This document shows, one piece after another, positions 1,189-61,111 of a DNA stretch of 64,000 nucleotides. This stretch comes from an uncultured bacterium (GTDB lineage: Bacteria; Hydrothermota; UBA3072). The notes under the pieces are model-generated. The model made no database searches, had not been told where the DNA came from, and saw only the letters and a program-made list of their open reading frames with translations. The stretch is taken from contig CAZHNS010000003.1 in NCBI GenBank assembly GCA_964534175.1, positions 63,939 through 127,938 on the forward strand, written 5' to 3'. Positions within the stretch are counted from its first letter, which is position 1, and every line of letters begins with the position of its first letter. The position numbers and the translations under genes were made by a program.

Positions 1189-3372
1189 ATGAAAATATTT
1201 ATACGTAATCTTTGTTTAGGTTTTGTCTTAGTTTTATTGTTATTTAGTTCTTTTAATATCTTTAGTTGGCCTAATATTCCTAAAATTCCCGAAGTTAAGG
1301 GTATAACGGATAAAATTGCTGATAAACTTCCAGGGTTGGACAAAATATTAAAAAGTGATCCTCCGGTAACAACAAATCTAAAGGATGCAATAACTGAAGT
1401 ATCCATACTGGATGATTATGAGCCTGCTTCACTGGATTTTTTATGGATGGGAGACCTGCCCAGAAGTAAGAAAGGTGCTTTTAAACTTGAGCGTCCAGGA
1501 TTATTCGAGTTCACGGCGCAGAGTTACTGCCTTAAAGCTGGAACATATTCTCCCGGGCAGGGTAATGGTTATCTTTATGCTCCGCTTAAAGGTCCTCAGG
1601 GTGATATTGTAGGAAATGTTCTGAGGAATTCATATGAACATCCGGAAATAGAGCAAAGGAAGGTTCAGGTTTTACTGTGGGCGATTATTGCTCGTACTAA
1701 ACTTACGGATATGTCGACAGAGAATCAGTTGACTGCTTCGAAACTATTGACGCCAGAAGAAATGTTTGAACTCAACGGAGGCGCGCTTGGGCTTGTTCCT
1801 GAAGATATGAAAGAAGAAGCATTTGGTAAAGTTCCGGAAGAGGTGAGGACGGTTCTCGAAGCGGAAGCAAAATTACGTGAAAAACTTACTTCTGTTGAAT
1901 CAAAATATGAGGATCTTGAACGCATCGCCGTTTTGACTGGAAAGGTCCCGATGGGCAAAGACAGTAGGGCAGTGCCTTCCGGAAGATGGTCCTATCATGG
2001 GGACGGATACTTTATAAGGTTCTTTCCTGCTGGGTATTCGCAGGATAAAATTCAGATTTCTATTGCTCCTAAAATTACAATTAAAAAAGATAGCAAAGGT
2101 AGAATAATTTCTCTTTCGGATGATGATGGAAATCTGATTGAAGTCGAATACGATGAAGCAAGTTCTATGAATGTAAATAAAGATTCGAAAGTGAAAGCTT
2201 ACGCTTTTAAAAAAGTCCATTTCGTTAAAATGCTCACCGTTCCACCGGAGATGGTTTTAGACCTTGAAGCCGATTGGACAGGAAAAGGATGGGTTTTTAA
2301 AGGGGAACCTTCAGGTAAGGGTTCGCCTTCAACTACGACAAAATTTACTGGTACTTCAAAACGTTATAAAGAAGCATCGGGATATAGAGAAGAGTTAAAG
2401 AATCTGGATAAGGTTTTGAAACTGAAAGGTGGCGTAGAAGATTTAATGAATCTTGTCCATTTTAAAATGGCAATAAAAGATTTAGTTGTTAATAATTCCG
2501 CCAGTAATCGAATTTGGGCAAAAGGACATGCCGATCTGGCAAATGAAGCAATTCAGTATCTTATAACTGAAAAAGAAGGTAGTTACGTATGGGCTTTTGC
2601 CGATTACGATAATTACTATGGAAAGGGGCTAAGAGAGACATTCTTTTCTATATTGAAGTCTTTTATTTCTTTGCCTGTTTATGCTGATGCGGATAAGATA
2701 CCCTGGTTCAACCCAGGTGATAATGTCGGGACACCGGGCAATACTTCGAGGCAGCGAATTGGTAATTCCGGACGTCCTGCATTAAGTGATGAGGAGAAGC
2801 AAAAAGCATGTGACAAGTTGAATGAGGAAATACAAAACGAACAGACTATTTTAGATGCATATTCTGATAAAGGTTTACTCGATGCGGCTAAAGCCAATGG
2901 ATATGATGGTTATGAGTACAATAACTGTGTTAAAAATTTTCTTGAAAAAACTTTTGGTGATGAGCAATTTACTCCTTTCGAGGATTTGAGCCCGAGCGAA
3001 CAGTCAGATGTACTTAAACAACCTTCAGGAGCTGATTCCGGTCCGAATTTTGATGCTCCCATGCACACAACTCCTGACTGCAGAATTGTAGAAAACTGGA
3101 CCACTCAGGACTATATAGATAAATTCGGAGAGACGGCTGGTAAGGCCCTGCAGCATGCTCACCGGGCACATGAAGGTTCACATCAAAAAACATGTAAGGA
3201 TAAAACCAATTATCATGATGTGCCTCCCGGACAGGGATCTGGTTGGCCGATCGACCCGGATGGATATGATGATTATATGAAAGATCCTGACAATTATAGT
3301 AAAGATGAACAGGAAGCATATAAGGCAGGTATTGCTGACAAGGAAAAATCCCTGGCGGATTTAGGATGCTGA
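1189..3372 (+). CDS. Large secreted hypothetical protein (signal peptide; Cys/His/Asp-rich C-terminal region)
   Basis: 727-aa ORF, N-terminal hydrophobic signal peptide after MKIFIRNL, strong RBS AAAGGAG; no family recognised. Confidence 0.55.
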   Translation: MKIFIRNLCLGFVLVLLLFSSFNIFSWPNIPKIPEVKGITDKIADKLPGLDKILKSDPPVTTNLKDAITEVSILDDYEPASLDFLWMGDLPRSKKGAFKLERPGLFEFTAQSYCLKAGTYSPGQGNGYLYAPLKGPQGDIVGNVLRNSYEHPEIEQRKVQVLLWAIIARTKLTDMSTENQLTASKLLTPEEMFELNGGALGLVPEDMKEEAFGKVPEEVRTVLEAEAKLREKLTSVESKYEDLERIAVLTGKVPMGKDSRAVPSGRWSYHGDGYFIRFFPAGYSQDKIQISIAPKITIKKDSKGRIISLSDDDGNLIEVEYDEASSMNVNKDSKVKAYAFKKVHFVKMLTVPPEMVLDLEADWTGKGWVFKGEPSGKGSPSTTTKFTGTSKRYKEASGYREELKNLDKVLKLKGGVEDLMNLVHFKMAIKDLVVNNSASNRIWAKGHADLANEAIQYLITEKEGSYVWAFADYDNYYGKGLRETFFSILKSFISLPVYADADKIPWFNPGDNVGTPGNTSRQRIGNSGRPALSDEEKQKACDKLNEEIQNEQTILDAYSDKGLLDAAKANGYDGYEYNNCVKNFLEKTFGDEQFTPFEDLSPSEQSDVLKQPSGADSGPNFDAPMHTTPDCRIVENWTTQDYIDKFGETAGKALQHAHRAHEGSHQKTCKDKTNYHDVPPGQGSGWPIDPDGYDDYMKDPDNYSKDEQEAYKAGIADKEKSLADLGC

Positions 3373-3410
3373 GGTTAGTGATTGGTATATTGGTTAATTG
3401 GTTGATTGGT
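3373..3410 (+). repeat. 8-bp periodic GTTAG/ATTGG array immediately after stop codon of the 1189-3372 gene
   Basis: ggttagtg attggtat attggtta attggttg attggt - 5 units at 8-bp period starting 1 nt after TGA. Confidence 0.6.
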
Positions 3411-3466
3411 AAAAATAAAATTTTATTCATTTATTGTAGAATCCTGTAGGGGATTAGAGAATTTTA

Positions 3467-4123
3467 ATGGGCGATTATACGAATGAGATGAGAGAGTATT
3501 GGAATAAGAGATTTTCCGAGGGTGCTGAAATCTGGGGTGTTAAACCGAGTAAGACCGCTCACTATGCCCTTAAATTATTTAAAAGTCTTAATGTAAGATC
3601 GGTGATTGTTCCGGGTTCGGGATATGGGAGAAATACAAAATTATTTGGGGAAGCGGGATTTAAGGTTGTAGGAGTAGAAATATCAGATAACGCAGTTAAA
3701 CGGGCGCGAAAATTTGACACGAAAAGTAAATTTTATCGTAGAACGGCACTTGAAATAGATTCATTAGTCGAAAAATTTGACGCCATATACTGTTTCAATA
3801 TGCTGCATCTTTTTAAAGAGAAAGAAAGATTACTATTTATAGATAAATGCAATGAAATATTAAATGATCATGGATTTACTTTTTTTGTGATGTTTTCAGA
3901 TAAGGAAGAGAGTTTTGGCAAAGGCAAGAAAATTGAGAAAAATACTTTTGAAAGTAAACCAGGAAGAATAGCACATTATTTTACCAGGGAAGACTTATTG
4001 GCTCATTTTAAGAATTTTGACGTTATTGAGATAGGGAAGATGACCGACGAGGAAAACCATGGTGAGGTAGGTAAACATATACATCGGTTAAGATATGTTT
4101 TTTGTTCAAAGCGGGATTACTGA
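3467..4123 (+). CDS. Class I SAM-dependent methyltransferase
   Basis: Motif I-like VIVPGSGYGRN and downstream acidic/aromatic motifs typical of Rossmann-fold methyltransferases. Confidence 0.55.
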   Translation: MGDYTNEMREYWNKRFSEGAEIWGVKPSKTAHYALKLFKSLNVRSVIVPGSGYGRNTKLFGEAGFKVVGVEISDNAVKRARKFDTKSKFYRRTALEIDSLVEKFDAIYCFNMLHLFKEKERLLFIDKCNEILNDHGFTFFVMFSDKEESFGKGKKIEKNTFESKPGRIAHYFTREDLLAHFKNFDVIEIGKMTDEENHGEVGKHIHRLRYVFCSKRDY

Positions 4124-12276: not shown

Positions 12277-12836
12277 AAATGGATAGAAAAGTTGTAAGGA
12301 AATGGTTGAAGGATCCAGAAAAAATGGGTAATAAGTATTCTCTCTGGGCTGTTTATTTCTGCACGGGCTGTGGAATAATTGAAGTTCCTCCGGTTATAAC
12401 TTCTCGCTGGGATGCAGAGAGATTTGGCGTTATTCCTGTAGCGACCCCAAGACAGGCAAATTTGTTTTTAATTACGGGTTATGTCTCTCTGAAAACTTTA
12501 AGAGCTATCATAAGGACCTATGAGCAGATGCGAGAGCCAAAATATACAGTAGGGTTTGGTTCATGTCCGATAAACGGAGGTATGTACTGGGATTCATACA
12601 ACACCATCAAACACCTTGATAAATATATACCGATTGATGGTTGGATTGCCGGTTGTATGCCTAGACCTGAAGCGATATTTATTGCAGTAACGCATCTATG
12701 GACTTTGATCGATAAGGGTATGGCAAACGCATACAAAAAGTACAGAAAACAATATAAATATTATCGAAGGAATCAGGAAATGGCGCTGGGAAAACTCGAA
12801 TGGCCACCCCTGTACCCAATAATTGAAGATGAATAA
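12267..12836 (+). CDS. NuoB/hydrogenase-small-subunit-like [4Fe-4S] subunit (MbhJ-like)
   Basis: Four Cys in CTGCGIIE ... GSCP ... AGCMPRPE arrangement; CxxC (hydrogenase-small-subunit type) rather than CC (NuoB type). Confidence 0.75.
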   Translation: MEVKMDRKVVRKWLKDPEKMGNKYSLWAVYFCTGCGIIEVPPVITSRWDAERFGVIPVATPRQANLFLITGYVSLKTLRAIIRTYEQMREPKYTVGFGSCPINGGMYWDSYNTIKHLDKYIPIDGWIAGCMPRPEAIFIAVTHLWTLIDKGMANAYKKYRKQYKYYRRNQEMALGKLEWPPLYPIIEDE

Positions 12837-14456: not shown

Positions 14457-16331
14457 GTGAGGTTTACAGAAATGGATAAAAAAACTTCAATTCTGAGTCC
14501 GTTAAAGGCGTTAAAATATCTTTTCAAAAAACCAAAAACTTTAAGATATCCGTTTGAACTTAAAGAGCCTGCAGAAAGATATAGAGGTTTACATCTAAAT
14601 GATTGGGATCAGTGCACGGGTTGCGGAAACTGTGCAGATATTTGTCCTAATGAGGCAATTCTTATGAAAGAAATACCGGAAATCGAGGCAAAAGACGGAG
14701 AGAGAAATGAGCGCCCCGAAATAGATTACGGTAGATGCTGTTTTTGCGGATTATGTGTTGATATTTGTCCGACAGGTTCCATCCGGCTATCCAGAGATTA
14801 TTTTCATATCCATTTTGACCCCAAGACTTTCAAGCTTCTGGCAAAAGATGAAAAAACGGACGGGGAACACTTCCTTCCTGAGGGGAAATATTCTATTCTT
14901 AAAGCATCGCTTGCCCATCGAAGAAAAAATTATGAGGGTTTTAGTTCTGACTTAGAATACGCACTGTTTGACCCTGAAAGAGTACAGATGTCTCAGGCTT
15001 CACCCAAAGAGAGAAAATCCTCTTTTATTGAACAGGTAAAGGGTTTCAGCGCACAGGAGGCTCTAAAAGAAGCGAGTCGATGTTTGGAGTGTAAGTTATG
15101 CGAGGAAGTCTGTCCTGCCGGTATGGATATAGTTGATTATGTACGCAATTTATGGGAAGGTGATTTAGAGGAAGCGGTCAGGGATATTTACAAAACAAAT
15201 CCCTTACCCGGCGTTTGTGGTAGAGTTTGCACGCATAATTGTGAGTCTGCCTGTGTACTTAGTCATCGAGGTGAACCTGTATCTATAAGATGGTTAAAGC
15301 GTTATGTTGTGGATAATCTTTCTCTTTCCGAATATCAAAAGGTGCTTGAAACAGAAAAAATTAAATCTATAGGGAAAAAAGTTGCTATAATTGGCGCGGG
15401 TCCGGGAGGCTTATCGGCTGCTTATTATCTCAGATTGATGGGTTATAAGGTCGTTATCTTTGAGAAGTTGCCCGAACCCGGTGGGATGCTGAGATATGGT
15501 ATTCCTGAATACCGACTTCCCTATGAAGCTTTAAATAAAGATATTGAATATATAAAATCTGTAGGAGTAGATATTAGATGTGATAATACTGTTGGCGAGG
15601 ATATTTCACTTGCTGAACTTCGGGATAATTATGACGCGGTTTTTGTGTCTACTGGTTTTCATGCCGGGCGGAGTACCGGAGTTCCGGGAAGTAAAAACCC
15701 TCACGTTTTTCAGGCAATAGAATTACTCAGAAAGGTGACGATGGGAGAAGAGATTGAAGTTACCGATAAGATTGTGGTAATAGGTGGGGGAGATGTTGCT
15801 ATGGATATTTCGAGAACACTTGCCCGATTGCAGATGAAGAAATTTGGAGCTGTAGATATTACTCTCAGTTGCTTGGAAACGAGGGACATTATGCCCGCTA
15901 CTCCGGAAGAAATAGAGGAAGCTCTTGAAGAAGGCATTAAAATGTATCCGGGATGGGGTCCGGAGAAGATTATTATAGAAAAAGAAAAAGTTAAGGGTAT
16001 AGTTATGAAAAAGTGCCTCAGGGTTTTTGACGAAGAAGGAAAGTTTAATCCTGAATTTGATGATAAGGAGAAAAAGGATTTTGAGTGTTCGATGGTCGTT
16101 GAAGCAATAGGGCAGGCACCTGATTTTACTTTTATATCAGAAGATATAAAAGTAAAACTTAAATATGAGGGAAGAAGGATGAAAGTTAATGAGTATGGTC
16201 AAACTTCATTGCCTTGGTTATTCATCGGAGGAGATATCCTGAGGGGTCCCGATGTAATTAACGCTATCGATACCGGACATAAGGCCGCAAGAGGTATCGA
16301 TAAATTTATCTCCTCCAAAGAGAAAAAATAA
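14457..16331 (+). CDS. Fusion protein: NuoI-type 2x[4Fe-4S] ferredoxin (N-term) + GltD/NfnB/SudA-like FAD/NAD(P)H oxidoreductase (C-term)
   Basis: CTGCGNCADICP and CCFCGLCVDICP (NuoI-like); then CLECKLCEEVCP + CGRVCTHNCESAC (GltD-type Fe-S), GXGXXG FAD site VAIIGAGPGGLSAAYYL and second dinucleotide site VVIGGGDVAMD. Confidence 0.75.
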   Translation: MRFTEMDKKTSILSPLKALKYLFKKPKTLRYPFELKEPAERYRGLHLNDWDQCTGCGNCADICPNEAILMKEIPEIEAKDGERNERPEIDYGRCCFCGLCVDICPTGSIRLSRDYFHIHFDPKTFKLLAKDEKTDGEHFLPEGKYSILKASLAHRRKNYEGFSSDLEYALFDPERVQMSQASPKERKSSFIEQVKGFSAQEALKEASRCLECKLCEEVCPAGMDIVDYVRNLWEGDLEEAVRDIYKTNPLPGVCGRVCTHNCESACVLSHRGEPVSIRWLKRYVVDNLSLSEYQKVLETEKIKSIGKKVAIIGAGPGGLSAAYYLRLMGYKVVIFEKLPEPGGMLRYGIPEYRLPYEALNKDIEYIKSVGVDIRCDNTVGEDISLAELRDNYDAVFVSTGFHAGRSTGVPGSKNPHVFQAIELLRKVTMGEEIEVTDKIVVIGGGDVAMDISRTLARLQMKKFGAVDITLSCLETRDIMPATPEEIEEALEEGIKMYPGWGPEKIIIEKEKVKGIVMKKCLRVFDEEGKFNPEFDDKEKKDFECSMVVEAIGQAPDFTFISEDIKVKLKYEGRRMKVNEYGQTSLPWLFIGGDILRGPDVINAIDTGHKAARGIDKFISSKEKK

Positions 16332-21227: not shown

Positions 21228-21600
21228 TCACCCAATTTCCCGTTCAGGGTACCGTTCTTAAAAATCGTAGTCAATTTCCCCGACGGTCTTATTCGTAAGG
21301 AGTACTGTTCGAGAAAACCAGAGTCAATTCTCCCGGCGAGAGAATTGCTCTTTATCTCTCGCTCTCACTCTTTTCGATTTCTTCAAAATCGAAAAACCGT
21401 GCCCGTTCGAGCTCCGAGGTATTTTCCTGAACAGTACTCCTTACTCATTTTGAAGTTTAAGTCCATGCCCGCTCAGTCTGCGAGACATTTTTTATGAAAG
21501 GCATACCTGGACTTTTAAGATTTGAAGAAAACAAAAAGAAAAACCATGCCCGCTCGGTCTCCGAGGCATTTTTCCTGAACGGTACCCTTCACTTTTTTTT
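21228..21600. repeat. Composite hairpin-rich dispersed element, copy 1 (family A)
   Basis: Shares multiple blocks with 54418-54725 (gtcaatttcccc.acgg; aaggagtactgt...acag(t/c)actcctt outer inverted repeat; ccatgcccgctcg-hairpin-ttttttatgaaaggcat.cctg.acttttaag). Confidence 0.7.
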
Positions 21601-22849: not shown

Positions 22850-22917
22850 AGGGCTTATATTATATGATTGGAGAGAACAAAGGCAAGGTGTTAGGTATTA
22901 AGTCTTAGGTTTTAGAT

Positions 22918-23433: not shown

Positions 23434-23476
23434 AGTAGATTATAAATATTATAAATTTGTTGTCAATTACTTATTT

Positions 23477-23573
23477 GATTGGTGCGTAGAAGCGTTAGTG
23501 CGTGAGCCTCTCCTTCCATCCAAGTATTTGGAATTTTAACTCTCTAACACTCTAACGCTCTAACCCTCTAACG
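23477..23573. repeat. Inverted pair of 8-bp-periodic arrays (GTTAG-type then CTAAC-type)
   Basis: gattggtg cgtagaag cgttagtg cgtgagcc (23477-23510) then ctctaaca ctctaacg ctctaacc ctctaacg (23542-23573). Confidence 0.6.
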
Positions 23574-23596
23574 ATTTTGTGTCTTCGTGGCTAAAA

Positions 23597-24112
23597 TTAT
23601 TTTTCTTTATTAAACATTTTCTCCGCGGGGCAGTTGATTTCTCTTTGCTTACAATATTTACACGCTAGAGAGCCACGAACGAGTTCGTTGCCTTTAGAAA
23701 CGAGTAAAAAAAGTAAAATTACGAATAATAATAATAACCAATTAAAATCCATAATCAATCTTACTATCCCTATTATCACGGGTATTATAGCGACAAGCAT
23801 ATCGGGTATAAGGTCTTTCCAGGTTATATTGTCGGACCAAGCGAATTTTTTTATGTCCCCCTTTTTGAAGAACAAGGAACATAATTTACCTTTTCCGAAA
23901 GCACATCTTTTGCCATAGTAATAGCAATTAATACAGCTTTTTCGAAGAAGACGGACTTCCAAAAAGACAATATACGCAAGATAGATTAGCAGCCAGATTA
24001 TTCCGAGCGGTTTGATTATTATTATACCAATTGTGTAGATGGATAATTGTAAGAGGTTCGAAATGATTATAATCCAGTAAGGATAATTTTCAAAACATTC
24101 AAATTCTTTCAT
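23597..24112 (-). CDS. Hypothetical membrane protein with Cys-cluster (zinc-ribbon-like) loops
   Basis: 171 aa, about 4 TM; CINCYYYGKRCAFGKGKLC and CKYCKQREINCP motifs. Confidence 0.4.
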   Translation of the reverse strand: MKEFECFENYPYWIIIISNLLQLSIYTIGIIIIKPLGIIWLLIYLAYIVFLEVRLLRKSCINCYYYGKRCAFGKGKLCSLFFKKGDIKKFAWSDNITWKDLIPDMLVAIIPVIIGIVRLIMDFNWLLLLFVILLFLLVSKGNELVRGSLACKYCKQREINCPAEKMFNKEK

Positions 24113-24218
24113 ATATAAATTATAAAAATTATTGATTTAATGTCAATTGTTTTTTTAATATTCCTTGAAACAAATAACAGACTCTCACGTCTAACTAATA
24201 AATAAACGGAGGTTAAAA

Positions 24219-24287: not shown

Positions 24288-24315
24288 AAAACGAAAAATT
24301 GAGGAGAATAAAAAA

Positions 24316-24345
24316 GGCGGGTTCTTCCCCGCCTTTTTTGTTTTG
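24316..24345. terminator. Bidirectional intrinsic terminator (aaaaaaGGCGGGttcttcCCCGCCtttttt)
   Basis: Perfect 6-bp GC stem, 6-nt loop, A-run upstream and T-run downstream; lies 14 nt past stop of the 24359-26989 minus-strand gene. Confidence 0.65.
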
Positions 24346-26989: not shown

Positions 26990-27076
26990 TAAAGCCTCCT
27001 TTTTGTTTTTTAACTTAGTATATAAATGTAATGTTATTGTACTGTTTTTTTATTATTTAGTCAAGAGTTTTTTAAT

Positions 27077-27146
27077 GGTTAGTCTGTTAGTGTGTTAGGC
27101 TGTTTTTTTTACGCACTAACGCACCAACCGACCAACGGACTAACTG
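27077..27146. repeat. Inverted pair of 8-bp-periodic arrays: GTTAG x3 then CTAAC/CCAAC x4 (potential long imperfect hairpin) in divergent intergenic region
   Basis: ggttagtc tgttagtg tgttaggc tg tttttttt acg cactaacg caccaacc gaccaacg gactaactg. Confidence 0.6.
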
Positions 27147-27266
27147 GGTTGCATTGTGTATTGGGAGATAAAGGGGTTGACATGGAAATCATATACCTTA
27201 AGATTACAACAATCTGGAAAGAAATAATTATAACTAAATTCTAAATAAAGGAAAAAGGGAGGGAAA

Positions 27267-27776
27267 ATGAAAATTTTAAAAAGAGTTTTAATCGTGATTG
27301 GTGTTCTGATTGCTTTGATGGTTATTGCTTTTGGAGTTTATTTGCTGGTTAATCGTCAGAGTGTTGCAGAGCCTTTCGAAGTAGGTTCTCCCGACTCGGC
27401 CAGGAAAATTTTGATTGTCACACAGGGTAGCGATTATAAAAATCTTATGGTAGATACTCTTATTTCCCGGTTAAAAGGAGAGGACGTTTATATAAGCGTA
27501 ATAGATATATCAGGATTAAACGAAATTTCTCAGGAAGATTGGGACGCGGAGATTATCATTCACACCACTGAAGGTTATAGATTGCCCGAGAGTGTTAAGG
27601 AATATCTTTTGCGAATAGAAAACCCTGATGAGGTTATGCTTCTTATTACTTCGGGTAGCGGAGAATGGAAGCCGGAAGATTGTAAGGTCGATGTCCTTAC
27701 TTCAGCTTCGAGAGTTACCGATATACCTGAAAAGGCAAATTATATAAAAGATAAAATAAATTCACTTTTTGAGTGA
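27267..27776 (+). CDS. Hypothetical membrane-anchored protein (N-terminal TM, flavodoxin-like beta-alpha-beta pattern)
   Basis: 169 aa; single N-terminal TM; no family recognised. Confidence 0.4.
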   Translation: MKILKRVLIVIGVLIALMVIAFGVYLLVNRQSVAEPFEVGSPDSARKILIVTQGSDYKNLMVDTLISRLKGEDVYISVIDISGLNEISQEDWDAEIIIHTTEGYRLPESVKEYLLRIENPDEVMLLITSGSGEWKPEDCKVDVLTSASRVTDIPEKANYIKDKINSLFE

Positions 27777-28132: not shown

Positions 28133-28218
28133 TACAACCTCCTTAAATTTTTTCTTATTTTATTCCTGTACTGTTATCTGTCAAGTAGGAAATCTCCTAT
28201 CCTTATTCCATTTTTTAC

Positions 28219-28250
28219 CACAGAGAACACAGAGAAACACAGAGAAAAAA
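28219..28250. repeat. Short tandem repeat cacagagaa x3 preceded by ttttttaccacag motif
   Basis: cacagagaa cacagagaaa cacagagaaaaaa; ttttttaccacag also at 33668. Confidence 0.5.
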
Positions 28251-28343
28251 AGGAATACGTTGTTGTTTAAAACCCTCCCCACAGCCCTAAAATTAGCTAC
28301 TGATTTACACGGATAAGCACGGATTTTTTTTGTTTTTTTCTTC

Positions 28344-28374
28344 CTAACTTACTAACATTCTAACGATCTAACTG
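28344..28374. repeat. 8-bp periodic CTAAC array (GTTAG on minus strand) ending 4 nt from stop of the 28378 minus-strand gene
   Basis: ctaactta ctaacatt ctaacgat ctaactg. Confidence 0.6.
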
Positions 28375-28377
28375 TTA

Positions 28378-29799
28378 TTATTTAATAATTAGTAACTTGT
28401 AGCTTTTTCCTGAATTATGAACTTTAACTATGAAAATTCCTGAAGGAAGTTTATTTATATCTGTAATAGCAATTTTTCTTCCTGTTACGGAAAAGATACT
28501 TATTTCCTCTGTGTAAACTAATCTTTGTATGTCTGGCAGGAATAAAGTATTTTTTCTACTTTCCAGTAATTCTTCTACCGGCTGGTGATTTGGGAAGAGA
28601 TCATTCCATTTGTACCACTGTGGAGAAAAGTAGGAAGCATCATGCGCGGAATCCGCGAATGAAACCGCGAATAGTGAATCATTTGGCAGGAAAAAAAGTG
28701 TGTGCAAAGTATTTTCGCACGCCAAGGATTTCATTAAATTTTCCATTCTATTGAAAGTTATATCTGGGTTAGTCCGCAGTGAATCTAAGACGGTATAGTA
28801 TCGCGAGTCGAACAAAGGTGCATAATTAACTTCTTCGTGATTTAAGGCTAAGAGATACCATGGGTAAAGATTTTCGTCATTTTCAGAGGTTCTGAAGGTA
28901 TCTCCTGATTCGTTGACACACTCTAAAACGGCTGCCGAAATTGTTGAAGAATCTACGTATGGTATAACTGTATGCAAAAGCCATGCGCCGCCGTTATTCA
29001 CTTCGAGAACTTTTTCGTATGCGTCTCGAAAGTTTACTATATGGTCTTTGTTATAATCGGAAATTTCGAGGATTTCCCTCAAGATAAATTGCATAGGCAT
29101 AACTCTTGGTTTTTTATTTGGAGTGCTAGTATGATAACCGGCGTTTATTGCCAAAGTGAGCATATCTTCGTTTACTCCTGAAATAGTCGAAATTATTCCC
29201 GGAAAACCAAAACCTACCCAGGCTTTTCCGCTATCGGGTTCGAAAGTCATTATGAGTCCTCGTTCTGCATCACTCATTTCGTGGGTTAAATCAAGATTTC
29301 TTCCCAGAATAATGTTTCCTTTTATTAAAGTATCGTTTATGGTTGCCTTACCCCAGGCAGAAAGAGAACTGCAGCCGAGGCTCTCTATGCTTAAAAAAAC
29401 ATAGTTTATATCGAATGTTGAATTTCCAAGTAGAATGTCGATTACATCCAGGTCACGGAGCAGTTCGGGAATATAAATATCCTCTCCAGAGGCTATTATT
29501 CCGTCTATTATTCCTTCGGCTTCTTTTTGATATTTTTTGGGAACAGTGAAGTAATTCCTATAATTTAGATGCAAATACTCGTATTCAAAGTAAGATAAAT
29601 CAATGATTTGAAAGCAAAATTCAGTAAGAAAATCAACTATTCTTTTATTTAATAGATATCCCTGTGCAAATCCCATTTCATAGTTGTTTCCCCAGACATT
29701 AAGAATCTCCTGCTCTCCATTGTATCGGAGAGAACCATTGATTGCAGTAGCTTCAGAAGTTATAATTAGGAAGGACAAGATAAGAATGAATTTTTTCAT
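28378..29799 (-). CDS. Secreted Ntn-hydrolase-like (peptidase C45 / acyl-CoA:6-APA acyltransferase-like) protein with T9SS C-terminal sorting domain
   Basis: Signal peptide; internal Gly-Cys (LGCSSLSAWG) resembling the autoproteolytic G-C site of C45/AAT-family precursors; C-terminus ...INKLPSGIFIVKVHNSGKSYKLLIIK Por-tail-like. Confidence 0.45.
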   Translation of the reverse strand: MKKFILILSFLIITSEATAINGSLRYNGEQEILNVWGNNYEMGFAQGYLLNKRIVDFLTEFCFQIIDLSYFEYEYLHLNYRNYFTVPKKYQKEAEGIIDGIIASGEDIYIPELLRDLDVIDILLGNSTFDINYVFLSIESLGCSSLSAWGKATINDTLIKGNIILGRNLDLTHEMSDAERGLIMTFEPDSGKAWVGFGFPGIISTISGVNEDMLTLAINAGYHTSTPNKKPRVMPMQFILREILEISDYNKDHIVNFRDAYEKVLEVNNGGAWLLHTVIPYVDSSTISAAVLECVNESGDTFRTSENDENLYPWYLLALNHEEVNYAPLFDSRYYTVLDSLRTNPDITFNRMENLMKSLACENTLHTLFFLPNDSLFAVSFADSAHDASYFSPQWYKWNDLFPNHQPVEELLESRKNTLFLPDIQRLVYTEEISIFSVTGRKIAITDINKLPSGIFIVKVHNSGKSYKLLIIK

Positions 29800-33601: not shown

Positions 33602-33695
33602 ATCGGTTTTAATTTATAAAAACAGTCGAAATAGTCAAGAGGAATAAAAAGCCTCTACAGCACATTTTTTTACCACAGCCCACACAGGATTTAAC

Positions 33696-33714
33696 CCGTT
33701 AGTCCGTTGGTCTG
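33696..33714. repeat. Short 8-bp periodic GTTAG/GTTGG unit pair, preceded by ttttttaccacag motif
   Basis: ccgttagt ccgttggt ctg. Confidence 0.4.
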
Positions 33715-33761
33715 TTTTCTGCGTGTCAACTAATTAAACAATTAACCAGTATATCAGTTGT

Positions 33762-41299: not shown

Positions 41300-41365
41300 T
41301 GAGACGGAAAAGGATTGATACGGATATTCAAAGAGAGAAAGGAGCATAAAGAGAAGTCAGAGCCG

Positions 41366-41510
41366 TCGAAAATTAAAAATCAAATATCAAAGTGCAAAAT
41401 TACAAATCAAAGTTCAAAAATGAAATAAAAACGAAAAACTTTAAAGGACATGATGTAATTTTGCATTTTTATTTGGCGTTTTACTTTTTAAATTTTAATA
41501 TTTAAATTTC
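41366..41510. repeat. AT-rich imperfect palindromic dispersed element, copy 1 (family B), ~110 nt upstream of lolC/E
   Basis: aaattaaaaatcaaa...acaaatcaaagttcaaaaatgaa / ...attttgcatttttat...ttttaaattttaatattt; arms are mutual reverse complements; shared with 50942-51090 and 56306-56485. Confidence 0.65.
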
Positions 41511-50875: not shown

Positions 50876-50941
50876 AATTCTTACTTTTTAAAGTTGAGTC
50901 GGGTGCAAACAAATAAGCGACTCGGGTATCCAAATTTGTCG

Positions 50942-51090
50942 AAATTTAAAAATCAAAAATCAAAATGTAAAAATACAAATCAAAGTTCAAAAATGAATAC
51001 AAGAATCCGCAAGAATTTAAAAAGCATGAGACAATTTTGCATTTTTATATGTAATTTTGCTTTTTAATTTTTAATATTTTATTTCCCATG
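50942..51090. repeat. AT-rich imperfect palindromic dispersed element, copy 2 (family B), ~40 nt upstream of rluD
   Basis: aaatttaaaaatcaaaaatcaaaatgtaaaaatacaaatcaaagttcaaaaatgaata...attttgcatttttatatgtaattttgctttttaatttttaatatttt. Confidence 0.65.
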
Positions 51091-51128: not shown

Positions 51129-52136
51129 ATGAAAAATAAAGAAATCGAAGAGTATAGTAATGATGAGGTTTGGCAAGAAGAATCCAGGACTGAGAATGTA
51201 AGGCTCGATACATATTTGTCTAAAAGCAGTCTCCCGTTTAGTAGAAGTAGAGTCAACAAAAAAATAAAGGATGGAGAGGTTTTAGTAAACGGAGAGAAGA
51301 CGAAGCCATCCTATTCTGTAAAAAGGGGAGATGTTATTCAGGTTTTTTATAAACCCCGTGTACCTTTTGAAATAAAACCCGAGAAAATACCAATTTCAAT
51401 TTTATATGAAGACCGGGATATTATTGTTTTAAACAAGCAGAAAGGTATAGTGGTTCACCCGGCAAAAGGAAATTCTGATGGCACGTTAGTTAACGCGCTA
51501 CTTCATCATTGTGCTACTCTTCCGGAAGGTTTTGATATGGATAGGCCCGGTGTTATCCATAGGTTAGATGAAGATACAACAGGTGTTATTGTGTTCGCAA
51601 AAAGCGAGAGAGTTCATTCTAAAATCGCGGTACAATTTCAGGAAAGACAAGTTGAAAAGATTTATCTGGCGGTGGTTTGGGGTGAACCTCCTATGAAAGA
51701 AGGGAAAATAAGTTCTCCAATAGGCAGAAGTCCTCTGGATAGGACTTTGATGGCGGTTACCCCGTTAAAATCCAGAGATTCTTTAACAAAATTTAAGGTG
51801 CTCCGTTCGTATGGTTTTGCTTCAATCCTCAAGGTGTTACTTGAAACCGGGAGAACTCACCAAATAAGAGTTCATCTTTCTCACTTGGGTTATCCTGTGA
51901 TTGGTGATGCGGATTATGGGGGAAGGGATAAAAGAATTTTAAGAAGAATAGGGCTTGACTATACGGATGTTTTTGATAAGATAATGGGGATTATTGATAG
52001 GCAGGCTCTTCACGCTGCATCTATTGAGTTTACTCATCCCATAAAGAAGAGGAGAATTCGAATCGCTGCACCGCTTCATGAAGACATGAAGAAGCTTATT
52101 GATTTTTTAAATGAAAATGCTGCCACTAAGACATAA
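51129..52136 (+). CDS. rluD: RluA-family 23S rRNA pseudouridine synthase (RluD-like, S4 domain)
   Basis: S4 domain N-terminus; catalytic HRLDEDTTGVIVFAK. Confidence 0.85.
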   Translation: MKNKEIEEYSNDEVWQEESRTENVRLDTYLSKSSLPFSRSRVNKKIKDGEVLVNGEKTKPSYSVKRGDVIQVFYKPRVPFEIKPEKIPISILYEDRDIIVLNKQKGIVVHPAKGNSDGTLVNALLHHCATLPEGFDMDRPGVIHRLDEDTTGVIVFAKSERVHSKIAVQFQERQVEKIYLAVVWGEPPMKEGKISSPIGRSPLDRTLMAVTPLKSRDSLTKFKVLRSYGFASILKVLLETGRTHQIRVHLSHLGYPVIGDADYGGRDKRILRRIGLDYTDVFDKIMGIIDRQALHAASIEFTHPIKKRRIRIAAPLHEDMKKLIDFLNENAATKT

Positions 52137-52211
52137 AGACACAAAGGAGTGTTGGGTGAATAAATTATTTTCAAAAATAAATTATAAAGATTTAGTGTTC
52201 TTTATGCCTTT

Positions 52212-54386: not shown

Positions 54387-54417
54387 TCATTACTTATATC
54401 AGAAGATTTTATAGACT

Positions 54418-54725
54418 TGGTCAATTTCCCCAACGGTGACCGTTCGGGGTACCACTACGAAAAACCGCAGTCAGTTTCCCCTGCGGGTGATTCGCAAGGA
54501 GTACTGTCCTAGAAAGACGTGGTCAATTTCCCCAGCGAGGAAATTGCCACTCGGCTCTCGGGTTCGCTCCTCTTAAAATGCAAGCATTTTAAGAGACCAT
54601 GCTCGCTCACCCTGCGAGACGCTTTCTTGGACAGCACTCCTTGTTCATTTTATTGATAAAAATCCATGCCCGCTCGTCTCCGAGCATTTTTTATGAAAGG
54701 CATTCCTGTACTTTTGGAATTTAAA
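54418..54725. repeat. Composite hairpin-rich dispersed element, copy 2 (family A), between topA and gltX
   Basis: Block-wise homology to 21228-21600; inner stems differ in sequence but stay complementary. Confidence 0.7.
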
Positions 54726-54811
54726 GAAGATAAAGTGGTGGGGGGAGGTGGAAATGCCCTTGACTTGTCTTATAAAGGACGTATATATGTAAACTATGAG
54801 GAAGTCAATAA

Positions 54812-56266: not shown

Positions 56267-56305
56267 AATTGTATATGTAGAACCAGGCTAGGCAACACCG
56301 CTACA

Positions 56306-56485
56306 ATTTAAAAATTAAATATTAAAATGAAAAATGACAAATCAAAGTTCAAAATGAATAAAAAAACAGAGAAACAACTAATCACACGAATAATACAAAT
56401 ATTTTTTTTGTGGTTAGGGTAGGGGTATGATTTTGCATTTTTATATGTCATTTTGCTTTTTGAATTTTGATATTTGATTTACTAA
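56306..56485. repeat. AT-rich imperfect palindromic dispersed element, copy 3 (family B), ~80 nt upstream of ppiD-like gene
   Basis: aaaaattaaatattaaaatgaaaaatgacaaatcaaagttcaaaatgaata...gattttgcatttttatatgtcattttgctttttgaattttgatattt; variable centre contains gtggttagggtaggg. Confidence 0.65.
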
Positions 56486-58295: not shown

Positions 58296-58824
58296 AAGCA
58301 GCTATCGGCTAACAGCTGACGGCTTTCGGCTTAGTAAAATTTTGGATTTTTTGCGTTGGGCTGTTTTATTAATGCCTGCGTTAATTATGTCTTTTCTATC
58401 CTGTGTTTATACTTTCAGAGAAAGTTCTTTTGGCGGCACTTTATCTATATTGTCTTTGGAAAATAAGACACAGAGCGCAGATATTGGCAGAATATTAACC
58501 GAGGGTTTGATAGATGCATTTATCAGCGATGGTAGAGTAAAACTGGAAACAGGGTCCGAGGGGGATTACCTTCTGGATGGGATAATTAATGCTTACGAAA
58601 GGAGTCCGGAATCGTACACGCCGGATGGTGAAGTCGAAAAATACCGTTTGTCGGTAAGTGCGGATTTTTTCCTTAAGAAAAAAGATAAAGAAAAGAATGA
58701 ATGGGATAAAGTTATTAATGAATCGTTTATTTATTCATCTGATTTTGATGAATTAGATGCAGTTGATTCCGTGGCCACCAAGGTTAAAAACTCCTTACTT
58801 CGTTTGATGCTGGAAGATTGGTAA
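58288..58824 (+). CDS. Hypothetical lipoprotein (possibly LptE-like)
   Basis: Lipobox FLSC after hydrophobic segment; ~180 aa; overlaps ppiD-like stop by 8 nt; family assignment weak. Confidence 0.3.
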   Translation: MNRSSYRLTADGFRLSKILDFLRWAVLLMPALIMSFLSCVYTFRESSFGGTLSILSLENKTQSADIGRILTEGLIDAFISDGRVKLETGSEGDYLLDGIINAYERSPESYTPDGEVEKYRLSVSADFFLKKKDKEKNEWDKVINESFIYSSDFDELDAVDSVATKVKNSLLRLMLEDW

Positions 58825-58830
58825 ATTAAT

Positions 58831-58868
58831 TTAGTTGATTAGTCGATTAGTTGATTGGTTAATTAGTG
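58831..58868 (+). repeat. 8-bp periodic GATTAG/ATTGG array 7 nt after stop of the 58288-58824 gene
   Basis: ttagttga ttagtcga ttagttga ttggttaa ttagtg. Confidence 0.6.
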
Positions 58869-58982
58869 TAGAATAGAATAAATTAATAGGGTAGAGGCAA
58901 CTACGAAACTATTTAACAACTTAACAACTTAACTTTTTTTTCGACTAAAGTCTAAAAACAATGTAAGCGGGATGCGGTTTTG

Positions 58983-60157: not shown

Positions 60158-60355
60158 TTACTTCCAACCTTCTATCTCAAGATGAGAAATCGCCTTATGG
60201 GAGACAAAAACCGATCTATTATTTGCCATCGGTGTGTCAACTTTCAGAAACAGTCCTCTGTCATTTCTGCCCGTTACTTCGCCCTGAAACTTTGAGCCGT
60301 CCACCGTTACAATTTTGATCAGCCTTTTTGTTCTTTTGGTTGTCTGAGTGTCCAT
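60158..60355 (-). CDS. hfq: Hfq-like (Sm-fold) RNA chaperone, short form
   Basis: Sm1-like IKIVTVDGSKFQGEV...GLFLK and Sm2 HKAIS motif (compare E. coli [26 protein letters not shown]...YKHAIS); canonical N-terminal helix replaced. Confidence 0.55.
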   Translation of the reverse strand: MDTQTTKRTKRLIKIVTVDGSKFQGEVTGRNDRGLFLKVDTPMANNRSVFVSHKAISHLEIEGWK

Positions 60356-60410
60356 TATTCCTCCTTTACTTTAATGTTTAAATTACTCATTCAAATATTC
60401 ATTTAAGGTG

Positions 60411-60554
60411 TTAGCACCCGCCAACAGGTGGACCGTCAGGTCCTCCACAAAGTACTACTTCTCCAACATTCTGGGCGACGTCAACTTTAGTAGTTTTCTT
60501 ATTTATTGAATTTATGAAACTTAGTAAAATTAATAATATATTCAAACTTACCAT
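60411..60554 (-). CDS. Small ORF (47 aa) not in ORF track: hydrophobic N-terminus plus C-terminal CGGPDGPPVGGC
   Basis: ATG 7 nt downstream of AAAGGAGG RBS (rc of 60561-60568); MVSLNILLILLSFINSINKKTTKVDVAQNVGEVVLCGGPDGPPVGGC*. Confidence 0.3.
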   Translation of the reverse strand: MVSLNILLILLSFINSINKKTTKVDVAQNVGEVVLCGGPDGPPVGGC

Positions 60555-61111
60555 CAAAAACCTCCTTTAATTACTTATATAAATGCAATAATCATTCCAG
60601 AATTTAAGTTAATGGCAATCAAGTATTTAACTAAATTGGGTCTATGAGTATGTGACATTTATGTCGCAACCAATTAAGCGTATTGTTTGTTGAGCCTTGC
60701 AAATTAAGAATTGTTTTTGTGGCAGAAATGTCACTTAGGAGACAAAAATGTCACAAAAAGTCTATTTTGTTAGTAATTGCAAAGGTGTAAGGGAAATAGG
60801 GCGAAGATTGACCCGGATTTGACGTGATTTTTTCTTTTTTCTAAGGGGTTGTGAGATTAGCCGTCTCTAGAGTTCTTTGCGGGCTTGCTTCTCGCAATGT
60901 TGTTGTGATTAGGTTTTGTATGTTATAGATGAAAAAATAAGTTTTCATCTATTTCTGTTATCTGTATTTTTTATTATAATTTAACCTGCGAACAGACCAA
61001 CGATTTGTGTTATCTATGTTTAATCTTTTTTCTTTTTAATATGTATTTTGCGCTGTAATAAGGTTTATTGTTTTTTTTGCAAGTGGTTTTTCTGGGCGAT
61101 TTTTTCTTTTT

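Follow-up and report, generated by a model that had tools for sequence, protein, structure and literature searches.

Tandem units of 7–8 nt dispersed between bacterial genes have been reported for decades from cyanobacteria, Geobacter, Beggiatoa and others, with no established function. In Geobacter metallireducens they form three classes of paired sites, namely 24 pairs of four tandem GTTGCTYN octamers (class 1), 21 pairs of three TCTCCGTS[Y] units (class 2) and 8 pairs of five MTYCTGA heptamers (class 3), whose arms lie on opposite strands at a variable distance; global regulators, as yet unidentified, were proposed to act at these sites, and IS110 or IS481 elements are a frequent finding in class 1 pairs (Aklujkar et al. 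2009, PMC2700814). Long simple sequence repeats (LSSRs) with units of 5–11 nt, among which heptamers are the commonest, are sporadic but widespread and were attributed to slippage by Mrazek et al. 2007, as far as the account in PMC4679880 goes. Dispersed families built from 6–8-nt units were described by Subirana and Messeguer 2019 (PMC6749651). TAACTGA arrays were found at 169 loci in a Beggiatoa relative, where an unidentified binding protein was suspected, and such direct repeats occur in marine Beggiatoaceae, cyanobacteria and some Bacteroidetes (MacGregor 2015, PMC4679880). Here we analysed a stretch of 64,000 nt from an uncultured bacterium of the Hydrothermota (assembly GCA_964534175.1, contig CAZHNS010000003.1, positions 63,939 to 127,938), hereafter the window, which carries between its genes short arrays of an 8-nt unit with the core GTTRG, or CYAAC on the other strand. 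They fall into an established class of dispersed short tandem repeats between genes, itself unexplained; what is new is the lineage and the core. Our preferred reading, which is tentative and rather less than an even bet, is that they are DNA-level binding arrays for an oligomerising protein at the boundaries of transcription units.

Occurrence of the arrays and constraint on their core

Three or more TTRG units at an exact spacing of 8 nt gave 12 overlapping matches in the window, corresponding to six arrays. The chance expectation in 200 first-order Markov simulations was 0.14 ± 0.36 with a maximum of 2, so the arrays are non-random, as the first-pass annotation of this DNA had held, and the same threefold core at periods 5–7 and 9–15 gave zero matches in the window. 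A lag-8 self-similarity scan, which presupposes no core, detected 10 arrays in the 64 kb, and eight of them are of the GTTRG/CYAAC type, with two extra sites at 33698 and 58913. These eight arrays are spread over six intergenic loci, all between long open reading frames (ORFs), and comprise 3–5 units with two of the eight unit positions free, in numbers far above chance. The period is 8 nt here and 7 nt in some relatives, and related 7-nt arrays are also present in the window, at 22888–22917 and 403–502. Dispersal was assessed in the window and in loci of relatives. Three arrays that had been singled out as beginning directly after stop codons, in sense orientation, were found at 3374–3411 (array a), 28344–28372 (array c) and 58831–58868 (array b), 1–6 nt past the stop codons. 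The exact 8-bp spacing ascribed to them holds for the later steps but not for the first step of array a, which is 7 nt. The inverted pairs noted at the outset were recovered as well, at 23477–23573 and 27078–27144; altogether the window has five inverted pairs, whose arms are 8 to ~45 nt apart, and arrays a and c are unpaired. The period had been judged too short for CRISPR, and this is borne out, since the repeat is 8 nt with 2–3 free bases, against CRISPR repeats of 23–50 nt with unique spacers.

Alignment in register of 29 units from the eight arrays gave the unit R-T-T-R-G-T-N-N. T2 and T3 are invariant, and G5 is present in 26 of the 29 units; the three exceptions (A) are all in array i, and this position never varies within an array. 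A purine occupies position 1 in 28 of 29 units and position 4 in every unit, T predominates at position 6, and at positions 7–8 the four bases are about equally frequent. Between adjacent units the mismatches at positions 1 to 8 number 1, 0, 0, 5, 0, 4, 9 and 14 out of 21 comparisons, and a register-free statistic of this clustering was matched in 0 of 20,000 permutations. Mismatches so largely confined to two of the eight positions are not what slippage plus uniform decay would leave. Moreover, in five comparisons of orthologous arrays with 24 units, positions 1–6 had changed in 7 of 144 cases and positions 7–8 in 11 of 48 (Fisher p = 7e-4), with T2, T3 and G5 changed in 2 of 72, and the non-array spacer DNA beside these arrays is 25–50% diverged. 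Change is thus ~5 times slower in the core than at the free positions, where it is about as fast as in the flanks. To judge from these alignments, the core is clearly kept by selection, and its strong position-specific conservation is compatible with the earlier suggestion of a recognition signal for a protein.

Position relative to genes and turnover in relatives

The G-rich arm comes first in all five inverted pairs of the window, a rule which by symmetry is valid on both strands. The same order was found in four of four pairs in relatives under strict criteria, none being reversed, and in eight pairs against zero reversed in other phyla, among the matches listed. Local base skew was rejected as the source of this rule, because the masked spacers run from A/C-rich to T/G-rich, in the opposite sense. 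In the 60 nt that precede the -35 boxes of 51 strong promoters, CYAA occurs 66 times and TTRG 30 times, with the opposite ratio farther upstream; many of these promoters are orthologues, so that the count overstates independence. For 76 arrays of diverse genomes among the matches listed, the smaller gap is on the 5' side of the G-oriented array in 57 cases versus 18 (p = 7e-6). All 27 sense arrays in co-directional spacers of other genomes, again among the matches listed, are next to the stop codon upstream of them, with a median distance of 10 nt. The G-type reading therefore adjoins the upstream gene end, and the C-type reading adjoins the downstream promoter. The stop-codon adjacency claimed earlier is real in the window and in other phyla, but it is half of the picture, because the complementary arm lies upstream of -35 boxes. 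A uniform sense orientation to the gene did not hold up, since co-directional spacers elsewhere contain 27 sense and 20 antisense arrays (among the matches listed) and most arrays in the WOR-3 relatives read CTAAC toward a gene start. Overlap with long ORFs is found for 3 of 120 arrays in other genomes, among the matches listed, and for 5 of 45 in relatives.

The relatives comprise ~25 loci in which LptE or an 876-aa protein is 65–87% identical to that of the window, collected by exact-protein look-ups and one metagenome scan; the LptE homologues include one labelled candidate division WOR-3. A search for the motif in related genomes had been advised by the first-pass annotation, and arrays were indeed found there. 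In the window, array b (58831–58868, plus strand) starts 6 nt past the TAA (58822–58824) of lptE and has five TTRG units, TTTAGTTG ATTAGTCG ATTAGTTG ATTGGTTA ATTAGTGT. Its inverted partner, arm i (58909–58941, minus strand), consists of three GTTAAGTT units followed by T8 (58934–58941), with TTAAC at 58913, 58921 and 58929 on the plus strand. At the same place after lptE, L130 (80% identity) has a five-unit array of unchanged length with differences mainly at unit positions 1, 4, 7 and 8, L131 has another array, of the CCGCTAA type, and more distant relatives have ACGCAGATNA decamers. In L129 (87%) the ~150-nt lptE-HK spacer is wholly missing; the junction reads GGTAA|...TGTAA|GCGG and possibly contains a short target duplication (GTAA), in the one filled/empty case, that of the window and L130 versus L129.

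Arms d and e occupy the spacer of a divergent promoter pair and are upstream of either -35 box. Arm d (27078–27101, plus strand; GTTAGTCT GTTAGTGT GTTAGGCT, then T8) precedes the -35 box of the 876-aa gene (27064–27059, minus strand) by 14 nt, and arm e (27112–27144, minus strand; GTTAGTCC GTTGGTCG GTTGGTGC GTTAGTGC) precedes that of ORF 27267–27776 (27177–27182, plus strand) by ~33 nt. Both -35/-10 pairs and the 5' untranslated region are kept in ~15 relatives, and the DNA between the two -35 boxes always consists of short-period arrays, which differ among these relatives. Orthologues of d/e were recognised in L133, L138/141/144/163/172, L139 and L140. The spacer of L133 is exactly 8 nt shorter in one arm and has ~two units fewer in the other, while the second arm has grown to 6–7 units in the L138 group; L139 and L140 have GTTAGGNN arms, in which the cores of the two arms match and the free positions do not. 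Further relatives have CTAAAnC heptamers, CACAGAGA units or GACTCAnGAC units at this spacer. Length differences between orthologues are multiples of 8, with indels of exactly 8 and 16 nt. As far as these sequences tell, the arrays turn over quickly between relatives.

A third pair is part of a composite. Arm g (23477–23508, plus strand) is degenerate, ATTGGTGC GTAGAAGC GTTAGTGC GTGAGCC, and forms on the minus strand a C-type arm 11 nt upstream of the GrpB gene promoter (23466–23439), a perfect TTGACA-16-TATAAT. Arm f (23536–23573, minus strand; GTTAGAGG GTTAGAGC GTTAGAGT GTTAGAGA GTTAA) lies 25 nt past the stop codon of ORF 23597–24112. Together with a central CCAAATACTTGG the two arms make up a composite of ~130 nt (23467–23596), which is nearly identical in L134, L136, L138, L141, L147, L148 and L163. 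This composite sits ahead of two different genes among the relatives, and each time its C-type arm reaches the TTGACA -35 box in the 8-nt register. A related 7-nt array, four units of TTAGG/TTAAG (22888–22917, plus strand), begins 1 nt past the stop codon of the GrpB gene and, read on the minus strand as CTAAnnC, leads straight into a -35 box (22886–22881).

Array a (3374–3411, plus strand) starts 1–2 nt past the TGA (3370–3372) of ORF 1189–3372 and consists of GTTAGTG, then four ATTGGTNN units at steps of exactly 8 nt after the first, then an A-run, with no inverted partner. Its sequence is the same in three further assemblies of the same species, and the lptE spacer is the same in the window and in the one further assembly that covers it; this is a weak test of copy-number variation because the assemblies are 99.98–100% identical overall. 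Array c (28344–28372, minus strand; GTTAGATC GTTAGAAT GTTAGTAA GTTAGG) starts 5 nt past the stop codon of ORF 28378–29799, and its four CTAAC on the plus strand are GTTAG in the sense of that minus-strand gene. The four cores are perfect and the spacers between them unrelated, and the array is absent from the Tandem Repeats Finder (TRF) listing. On the plus strand it is preceded by two CACGGATAAG and a T-run. Pair h (33698–33747, plus strand) comprises GTTAGTCC GTTGGTCT GTTTT and then a C-type arm, CAACTAATTAAACAATTAACC; it precedes a minus-strand -35 box at 33638 by ~60 nt and is almost the same as arm e over its first 24 nt, the match being 24 of 26 nt. Finally, a related inverted pair of 7-nt units, TCAGGAAT ... 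AGTCTGA AATCTGG GATCTGA (403–502), lies between convergent genes, and its unit type agrees with the Geobacter class 3 heptamer MTYCTGA.

Possible reader of the arrays and alternative explanations

If the preferred reading is right, the arrays would be cis-acting tandem binding units of 8 bp, sometimes 7 bp, along which a protein would oligomerise on DNA, each unit being occupied by a single subunit or dimer. Every subunit would recognise R-T-T-R-G-T and disregard the final two positions. With the G-rich reading beginning beside the end of the upstream gene and the C-rich reading running to the -35 box of the next promoter, the arrays would stand at transcription-unit borders and might affect promoter output or the insulation between neighbours; such placement would itself account for the head-to-head arrangement of pairs, G-arm leading. 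Whole units would be gained and lost by replication slippage, so that arrays grow, shrink, decay and get replaced fast, while selection would hold the core of those that persist. We infer that the reader would be a protein, acting on DNA rather than RNA, with an effect on promoter activity or on insulation as a roadblock. A core that is conserved without conserved pairing argues for a sequence-specific reader on DNA; so does the conservation of the d/e pair, which lies upstream of both flanking promoters and is hence probably untranscribed, and the lack of a consistent orientation to transcription is as expected for a DNA-level site. The set order of the arms and the excess of CYAA over TTRG next to -35 boxes count in favour of this reading as well.

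Several points weigh against this. Different cores (CTAAC, CTAAAnC, CACAGAGA, GACTCAnGAC) at one promoter among relatives are hard to reconcile with one specific binding protein, and the gap between the last unit and the -35 box ranges from 5 to 16 nt, unlike in classical activator sites; because of this range, a fixed phasing of the arrays to the -35 box was dropped. The orthologous comparisons are few (24 units) and come partly from related lineages, and gene conversion between copies could mimic purifying selection. The tight stop-codon adjacency of the sense G-type arrays (27 of 27 among the matches listed) points to a transcription- or translation-linked effect. The gene context offered no candidate for the binding protein, the neighbours being ordinary housekeeping genes. 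Furthermore, public data contain many 8-periodic arrays whose cores are unrelated. GTTAG(N3) repeated four times occurs at at least 120 loci in GTDB species genomes, the matches listed including Bacteroidota, Planctomycetota, Gemmatimonadota, Acidobacteriota, Patescibacteria, cyanobacteria, proteobacteria and others; about one fifth of the listed matches are plain (GTTA)n, many others are long and near-perfect arrays, and the listed loci also hold many 7–9-nt arrays with unrelated units. Control cores of the same composition in 8-periodic arrangement gave at least 120 loci (TGAGT) and 40 loci (GATGT) in viral contigs. GTTAG was therefore rejected as a uniquely favoured core across life, and since control cores also give many such arrays, the broad spread shows a common phenomenon and not one shared system.

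A wider version of the preferred reading is a long shot: the GTTRG octamers, CTCYGTG octa- or nonamers and WTCTGA heptamers, all with the purine arm first, might be sites of one widely distributed family of DNA-binding proteins that polymerise on 7–8-bp repeats and mark or insulate transcription-unit borders in many phyla. If this were true, the arrays would represent a general layer of bacterial genome organisation spanning WOR-3, Desulfobacterota (Geobacter), cyanobacteria and Bacteroidota. Already a protein reader at gene borders would explain a widespread class of orphan repeats; if there is no such reader, the arrays are an ordinary repeat family of one uncultured lineage.

Among the alternatives, it appears unlikely that the arrays are selfish palindromes resembling repetitive extragenic palindromes (REPs), their mosaics (BIMEs) or miniature inverted-repeat transposable elements (MITEs), i.e. 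pairs of arms with transposase-recognised sub-repeats that were copied to intergenic sites and then decayed, sometimes losing one arm. The very small mobile repeat that the first-pass annotation had named as another option is judged by the same evidence. The G-arm-first architecture is what terminal inverted repeats would give, and the absence of the ~150-nt lptE-HK spacer from L129, with its possible short target duplication, is a presence/absence pattern of the type that such elements leave. Near-identical copies at separate loci, namely the f/g composite, arm e and pair h, and three composites in L125, speak for copying too, as does the frequent use of Geobacter class 1 pairs, and of REPs elsewhere, as IS110/IS481 targets. 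Yet a scan of 30 proteins of the window revealed no transposase or REP-associated tyrosine transposase (RAYT), the other sites show no clear target duplication, and the arms do not form stable palindromes. The unit-multiple indels point instead to slippage in situ, and decaying copies would not be expected to keep their core in orthologues while free positions and flanks diverge.

The second alternative places the arrays in RNA, as the first-pass annotation had suggested with its 3'-end, termination or RNA-binding-protein signal: base pairing of the G-rich arm past the stop codon with the C-rich arm, or its recognition by an RNA-binding protein, would cause termination, 3'-end protection or ribosome stalling, like REPs near stop codons. 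Arrays a, b and c, which begin 1–6 nt past stop codons in sense orientation, agree with this, as do the 27 of 27 sense co-directional arrays elsewhere that adjoin the upstream stop codon (median 10 nt, among the matches listed) and the T8 that follows the b/i pair, and the ring proteins TRAP and HutP, which read spaced triplets in RNA, offer a precedent. The adjacency to stop codons stands; the rest of the proposal fits less well. The pairs folded as RNA and DNA have z-scores from -3.3 to +1.45 (-2.6 to +1.45 for the DNA folds), several being no better than shuffles, and the paired arms are often unequal in unit number and even in period (8 versus 7). With such weak pairing and unequal arms, a conserved stem-loop is not what is maintained. 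Only the b/i pair (58831–58941), ending in T8, resembles an intrinsic terminator, and it is the only one with a U-tract; a terminator scan covering arrays c to h picked up none, whereas canonical GC-rich terminators exist elsewhere in the window, e.g. at 24305–24344. In addition, both promoters that flank the d/e pair are directed away from it, and the orientation to transcription is mixed. An RNA-level role is thus rather improbable. More specific forms of it were rejected: hairpins or terminators as a general explanation, because the folds are mostly inside the shuffle range and one pair lies between divergent promoters; a Rho-utilisation site (C-rich, G-free antisense RNA), because the orientation is mixed; fail-safe stop codons in all frames, for the same reason and because TTGG units have no stop codon; TRAP/HutP-type triplet sites, because both orientations occur and one pair is upstream of both promoters; and a link to the Bacteroides RRM protein RbpB, whose reported motifs are unrelated sRNA sequences. 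Searches for tRNA genes in the window, and of the whole window against Rfam at gathering thresholds, gave no matches.

Thirdly, the arrays could be neutral slippage products, i.e. long simple sequence repeats with 5–11-nt units that would be tolerated in intergenic DNA alone, as a period of 8 disrupts reading frames and TAG/TAA stops are present in either strand; this, too, we consider quite unlikely. The rarity of overlap with long ORFs (3 of 120 among the matches listed elsewhere, 5 of 45 in relatives), the orthologue indels of exactly 8 and 16 nt, the fast turnover and the abundance of arrays with other cores are all what slippage would produce, and Mrazek et al. 2007, within the compass of the account in PMC4679880, ascribed widespread repeats of this kind to it. 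Whole-unit copying followed by uniform decay, on the other hand, would not concentrate mismatches in two of eight positions, nor put one core with differing free positions at eight or more sites in 64 kb, and it does not predict the pair orientation or the placement at stop codons and -35 boxes. The arrays are also the same in the four assemblies, though these hardly differ anywhere. Neutral slippage fits the dynamics of the arrays and not their position-specific constraint. Hypervariable copy number, as in the perfect repeats of phase-variable contingency loci, finds no support: the units are degenerate, and array a and the lptE spacer do not differ between the assemblies, although these are near-clonal and hence uninformative on this point.

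Neighbouring features and comparison with described systems

The window has a G+C content of ~37% and carries ordinary housekeeping genes, such as topA, gltX, surA, lptE, smc, rex and those for glycoside hydrolases, and one of the encoded proteins bears a sorting domain for type IX secretion. Sigma-70-type promoters close to the E. coli consensus are present at 23439–23466, 24119–24146, 27036–27064, 27177–27204 and 28157–28184, two promoters in the window being perfect TTGACA-16-TATAAT, and relatives retain the window promoters, as well as an A-rich stretch that immediately precedes the -35 box of the 876-aa gene. Other repeats share the spacers. Beside array c, the stretch 28217–28347 contains three T-free CACAGAGAA and two CACGGATAAG, a long T-run and then the CTAAC array; L125 has a decamer array, T-run and CTAAC array in the same order, in opposite orientation to the flanking genes. 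L125 also holds three copies of a ~100-nt composite within 16 kb (3730–3775, 12650–12700 and 15795–15840), with the order ATCTGCRTCC, T-run, (TTAGGGR)n, A-run and TCCTACATGTG boxes, which shows that whole multi-module elements are copied between spacers. A further family, B, has three AT-rich copies (41365–41503, 50938–51084 and 56305–56480; 87–92% identical), each an AAAATCA-type heptamer array with its inverted complement ~35–75 nt away. The GTTAGGGTAGGG block that had been reported in its third copy is present at ~56420–56433; between the arms of this copy is GTGGTTAGGGTAGGGG, a TTAGGG-type array like the (TTAGGGR)n of L125. At 52077–52211, two CATGAAGA and three CAYAAAGA octamers extend over the last codons and stop of ORF 51129–52136, their inverted partner CTTTATGCCTTTGTGGC lies just ahead of the topA start, and a similar GCCACAAAGGCACTAAGACAC array occurs in L139, L140 and L143.

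The topA–gltX spacer (54387–54811, 425 nt) has three GGTCAATTTCCCC-like boxes (~54418, 54468 and 54521) and several GC-rich hairpins, and a comparison of 54.3–54.9 kb with Rfam produced nothing even at E ≤ 1; this spacer may represent a structured RNA not yet described, or a regulatory region. A 40-nt stretch occurs at 54663–54700 and 21462–21501 with 92.5% identity, each copy beside a terminator-like hairpin CCATGCCCGCTCG...CCGAG(G)CATTTTT. Upstream of the gene for a 908-aa protein, a 793-nt spacer (60319–61111) holds ATGTCAC/GTGACAT boxes at 60652, 60728 and 60748, which are kept in relatives (L122 13400–13560; L129 2950–3150) beside a large sigma-54-activator/kinase gene and may be enhancer-binding sites. 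Around surA and lptE in relatives, small genes of the PDDEXK_3 or 23S_rRNA_IVP families occur at varying places (L123 1986–2369, L129 470–850, L131 2845–3063), which suggests that they are small mobile genes inserted in the same fast-changing spacers.

With REPs and BIMEs of enterobacteria and pseudomonads the GTTRG arrays share abundance outside genes, a frequent position just after genes, inverted pairs and mosaics with other motifs. REPs are also targets of IS110-type elements and have known effects on mRNA 3' ends. They are, however, single imperfect palindromes of 20–40 nt with a GTAG head and stable folds, whereas tandem octamers with the core GTTRG and weak pairing are found here. BIMEs are rare between divergent promoters, and one pair here sits in such a place. 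As for MITEs, inverted arms are present and one filled/empty case shows a possible GTAA duplication, none being visible at the other sites; an autonomous partner did not turn up. The cyanobacterial short tandemly repeated repetitive (STRR) sequences and LSSRs are similar in that they are dispersed, mainly non-coding tandem units of 7–8 nt with a sporadic phylogenetic distribution and slippage dynamics, but they are usually long and near-perfect, unlike the arrays here with 3–5 units, two free positions, a selected core and fixed inverted pairs. The TAACTGA repeats are likewise short intergenic arrays (2–6 copies) of one specific unit at many loci, with related units rare; their period is 7, nearly all are direct and in one orientation, and they lie immediately upstream of start codons over the ribosome-binding site, in contrast to the position of the present arrays after stop codons or upstream of -35 boxes, often as inverted pairs.

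For the binding of proteins to such units there are well-known examples. Met boxes of 8 bp, 2–5 in tandem, are bound by MetJ, direct and inverted 7-bp heptads by the ribbon-helix-helix protein omega, and arrays of hexamers by Fur. These operators resemble the arrays in having 2–10 tandem units of 6–8 bp, direct and inverted, near promoters, and since each unit is bound there by one dimer of a protein that polymerises along the DNA, a period of 8 bp is no obstacle to the preferred reading. They serve one regulon or plasmid and are conserved at their promoters, whereas the arrays here are dispersed and turn over fast; the likeness is one of mechanism only, not of membership.

The sites of Geobacter come nearest. 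They too consist of 3–5 tandem units of 7–9 nt with a conserved core and degenerate end positions (GTTGCTYN there, RTTRGTNN here), in dozens of intergenic copies with no established function, and their pairs lie on opposite strands at variable distance in one fixed relative orientation; in the class 3 pairs the purine-rich arm is first in 8 of 8. Three Geobacter-like kinds of unit occur in the window and its relatives, including the WTCTGA heptamers at 403–502 and TCTCYGTG arrays. The differences are the phylum, the core (GTTRG here, GTTGC there), the lack of any IS110/IS481 insertion in this small sample, where no transposase is in the window, and the extent of likeness between copies, which in Geobacter allowed the sites to be defined by BLAST over longer stretches and here goes little beyond the core. 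To this class the arrays add a comparative case with conserved flanking promoters, expansion and contraction by whole units, a slowly changing core and a head-to-head rule, which argues that they are read sequence-specifically rather than being junk and provides, in RTTRGT every 8 bp, a testable motif.

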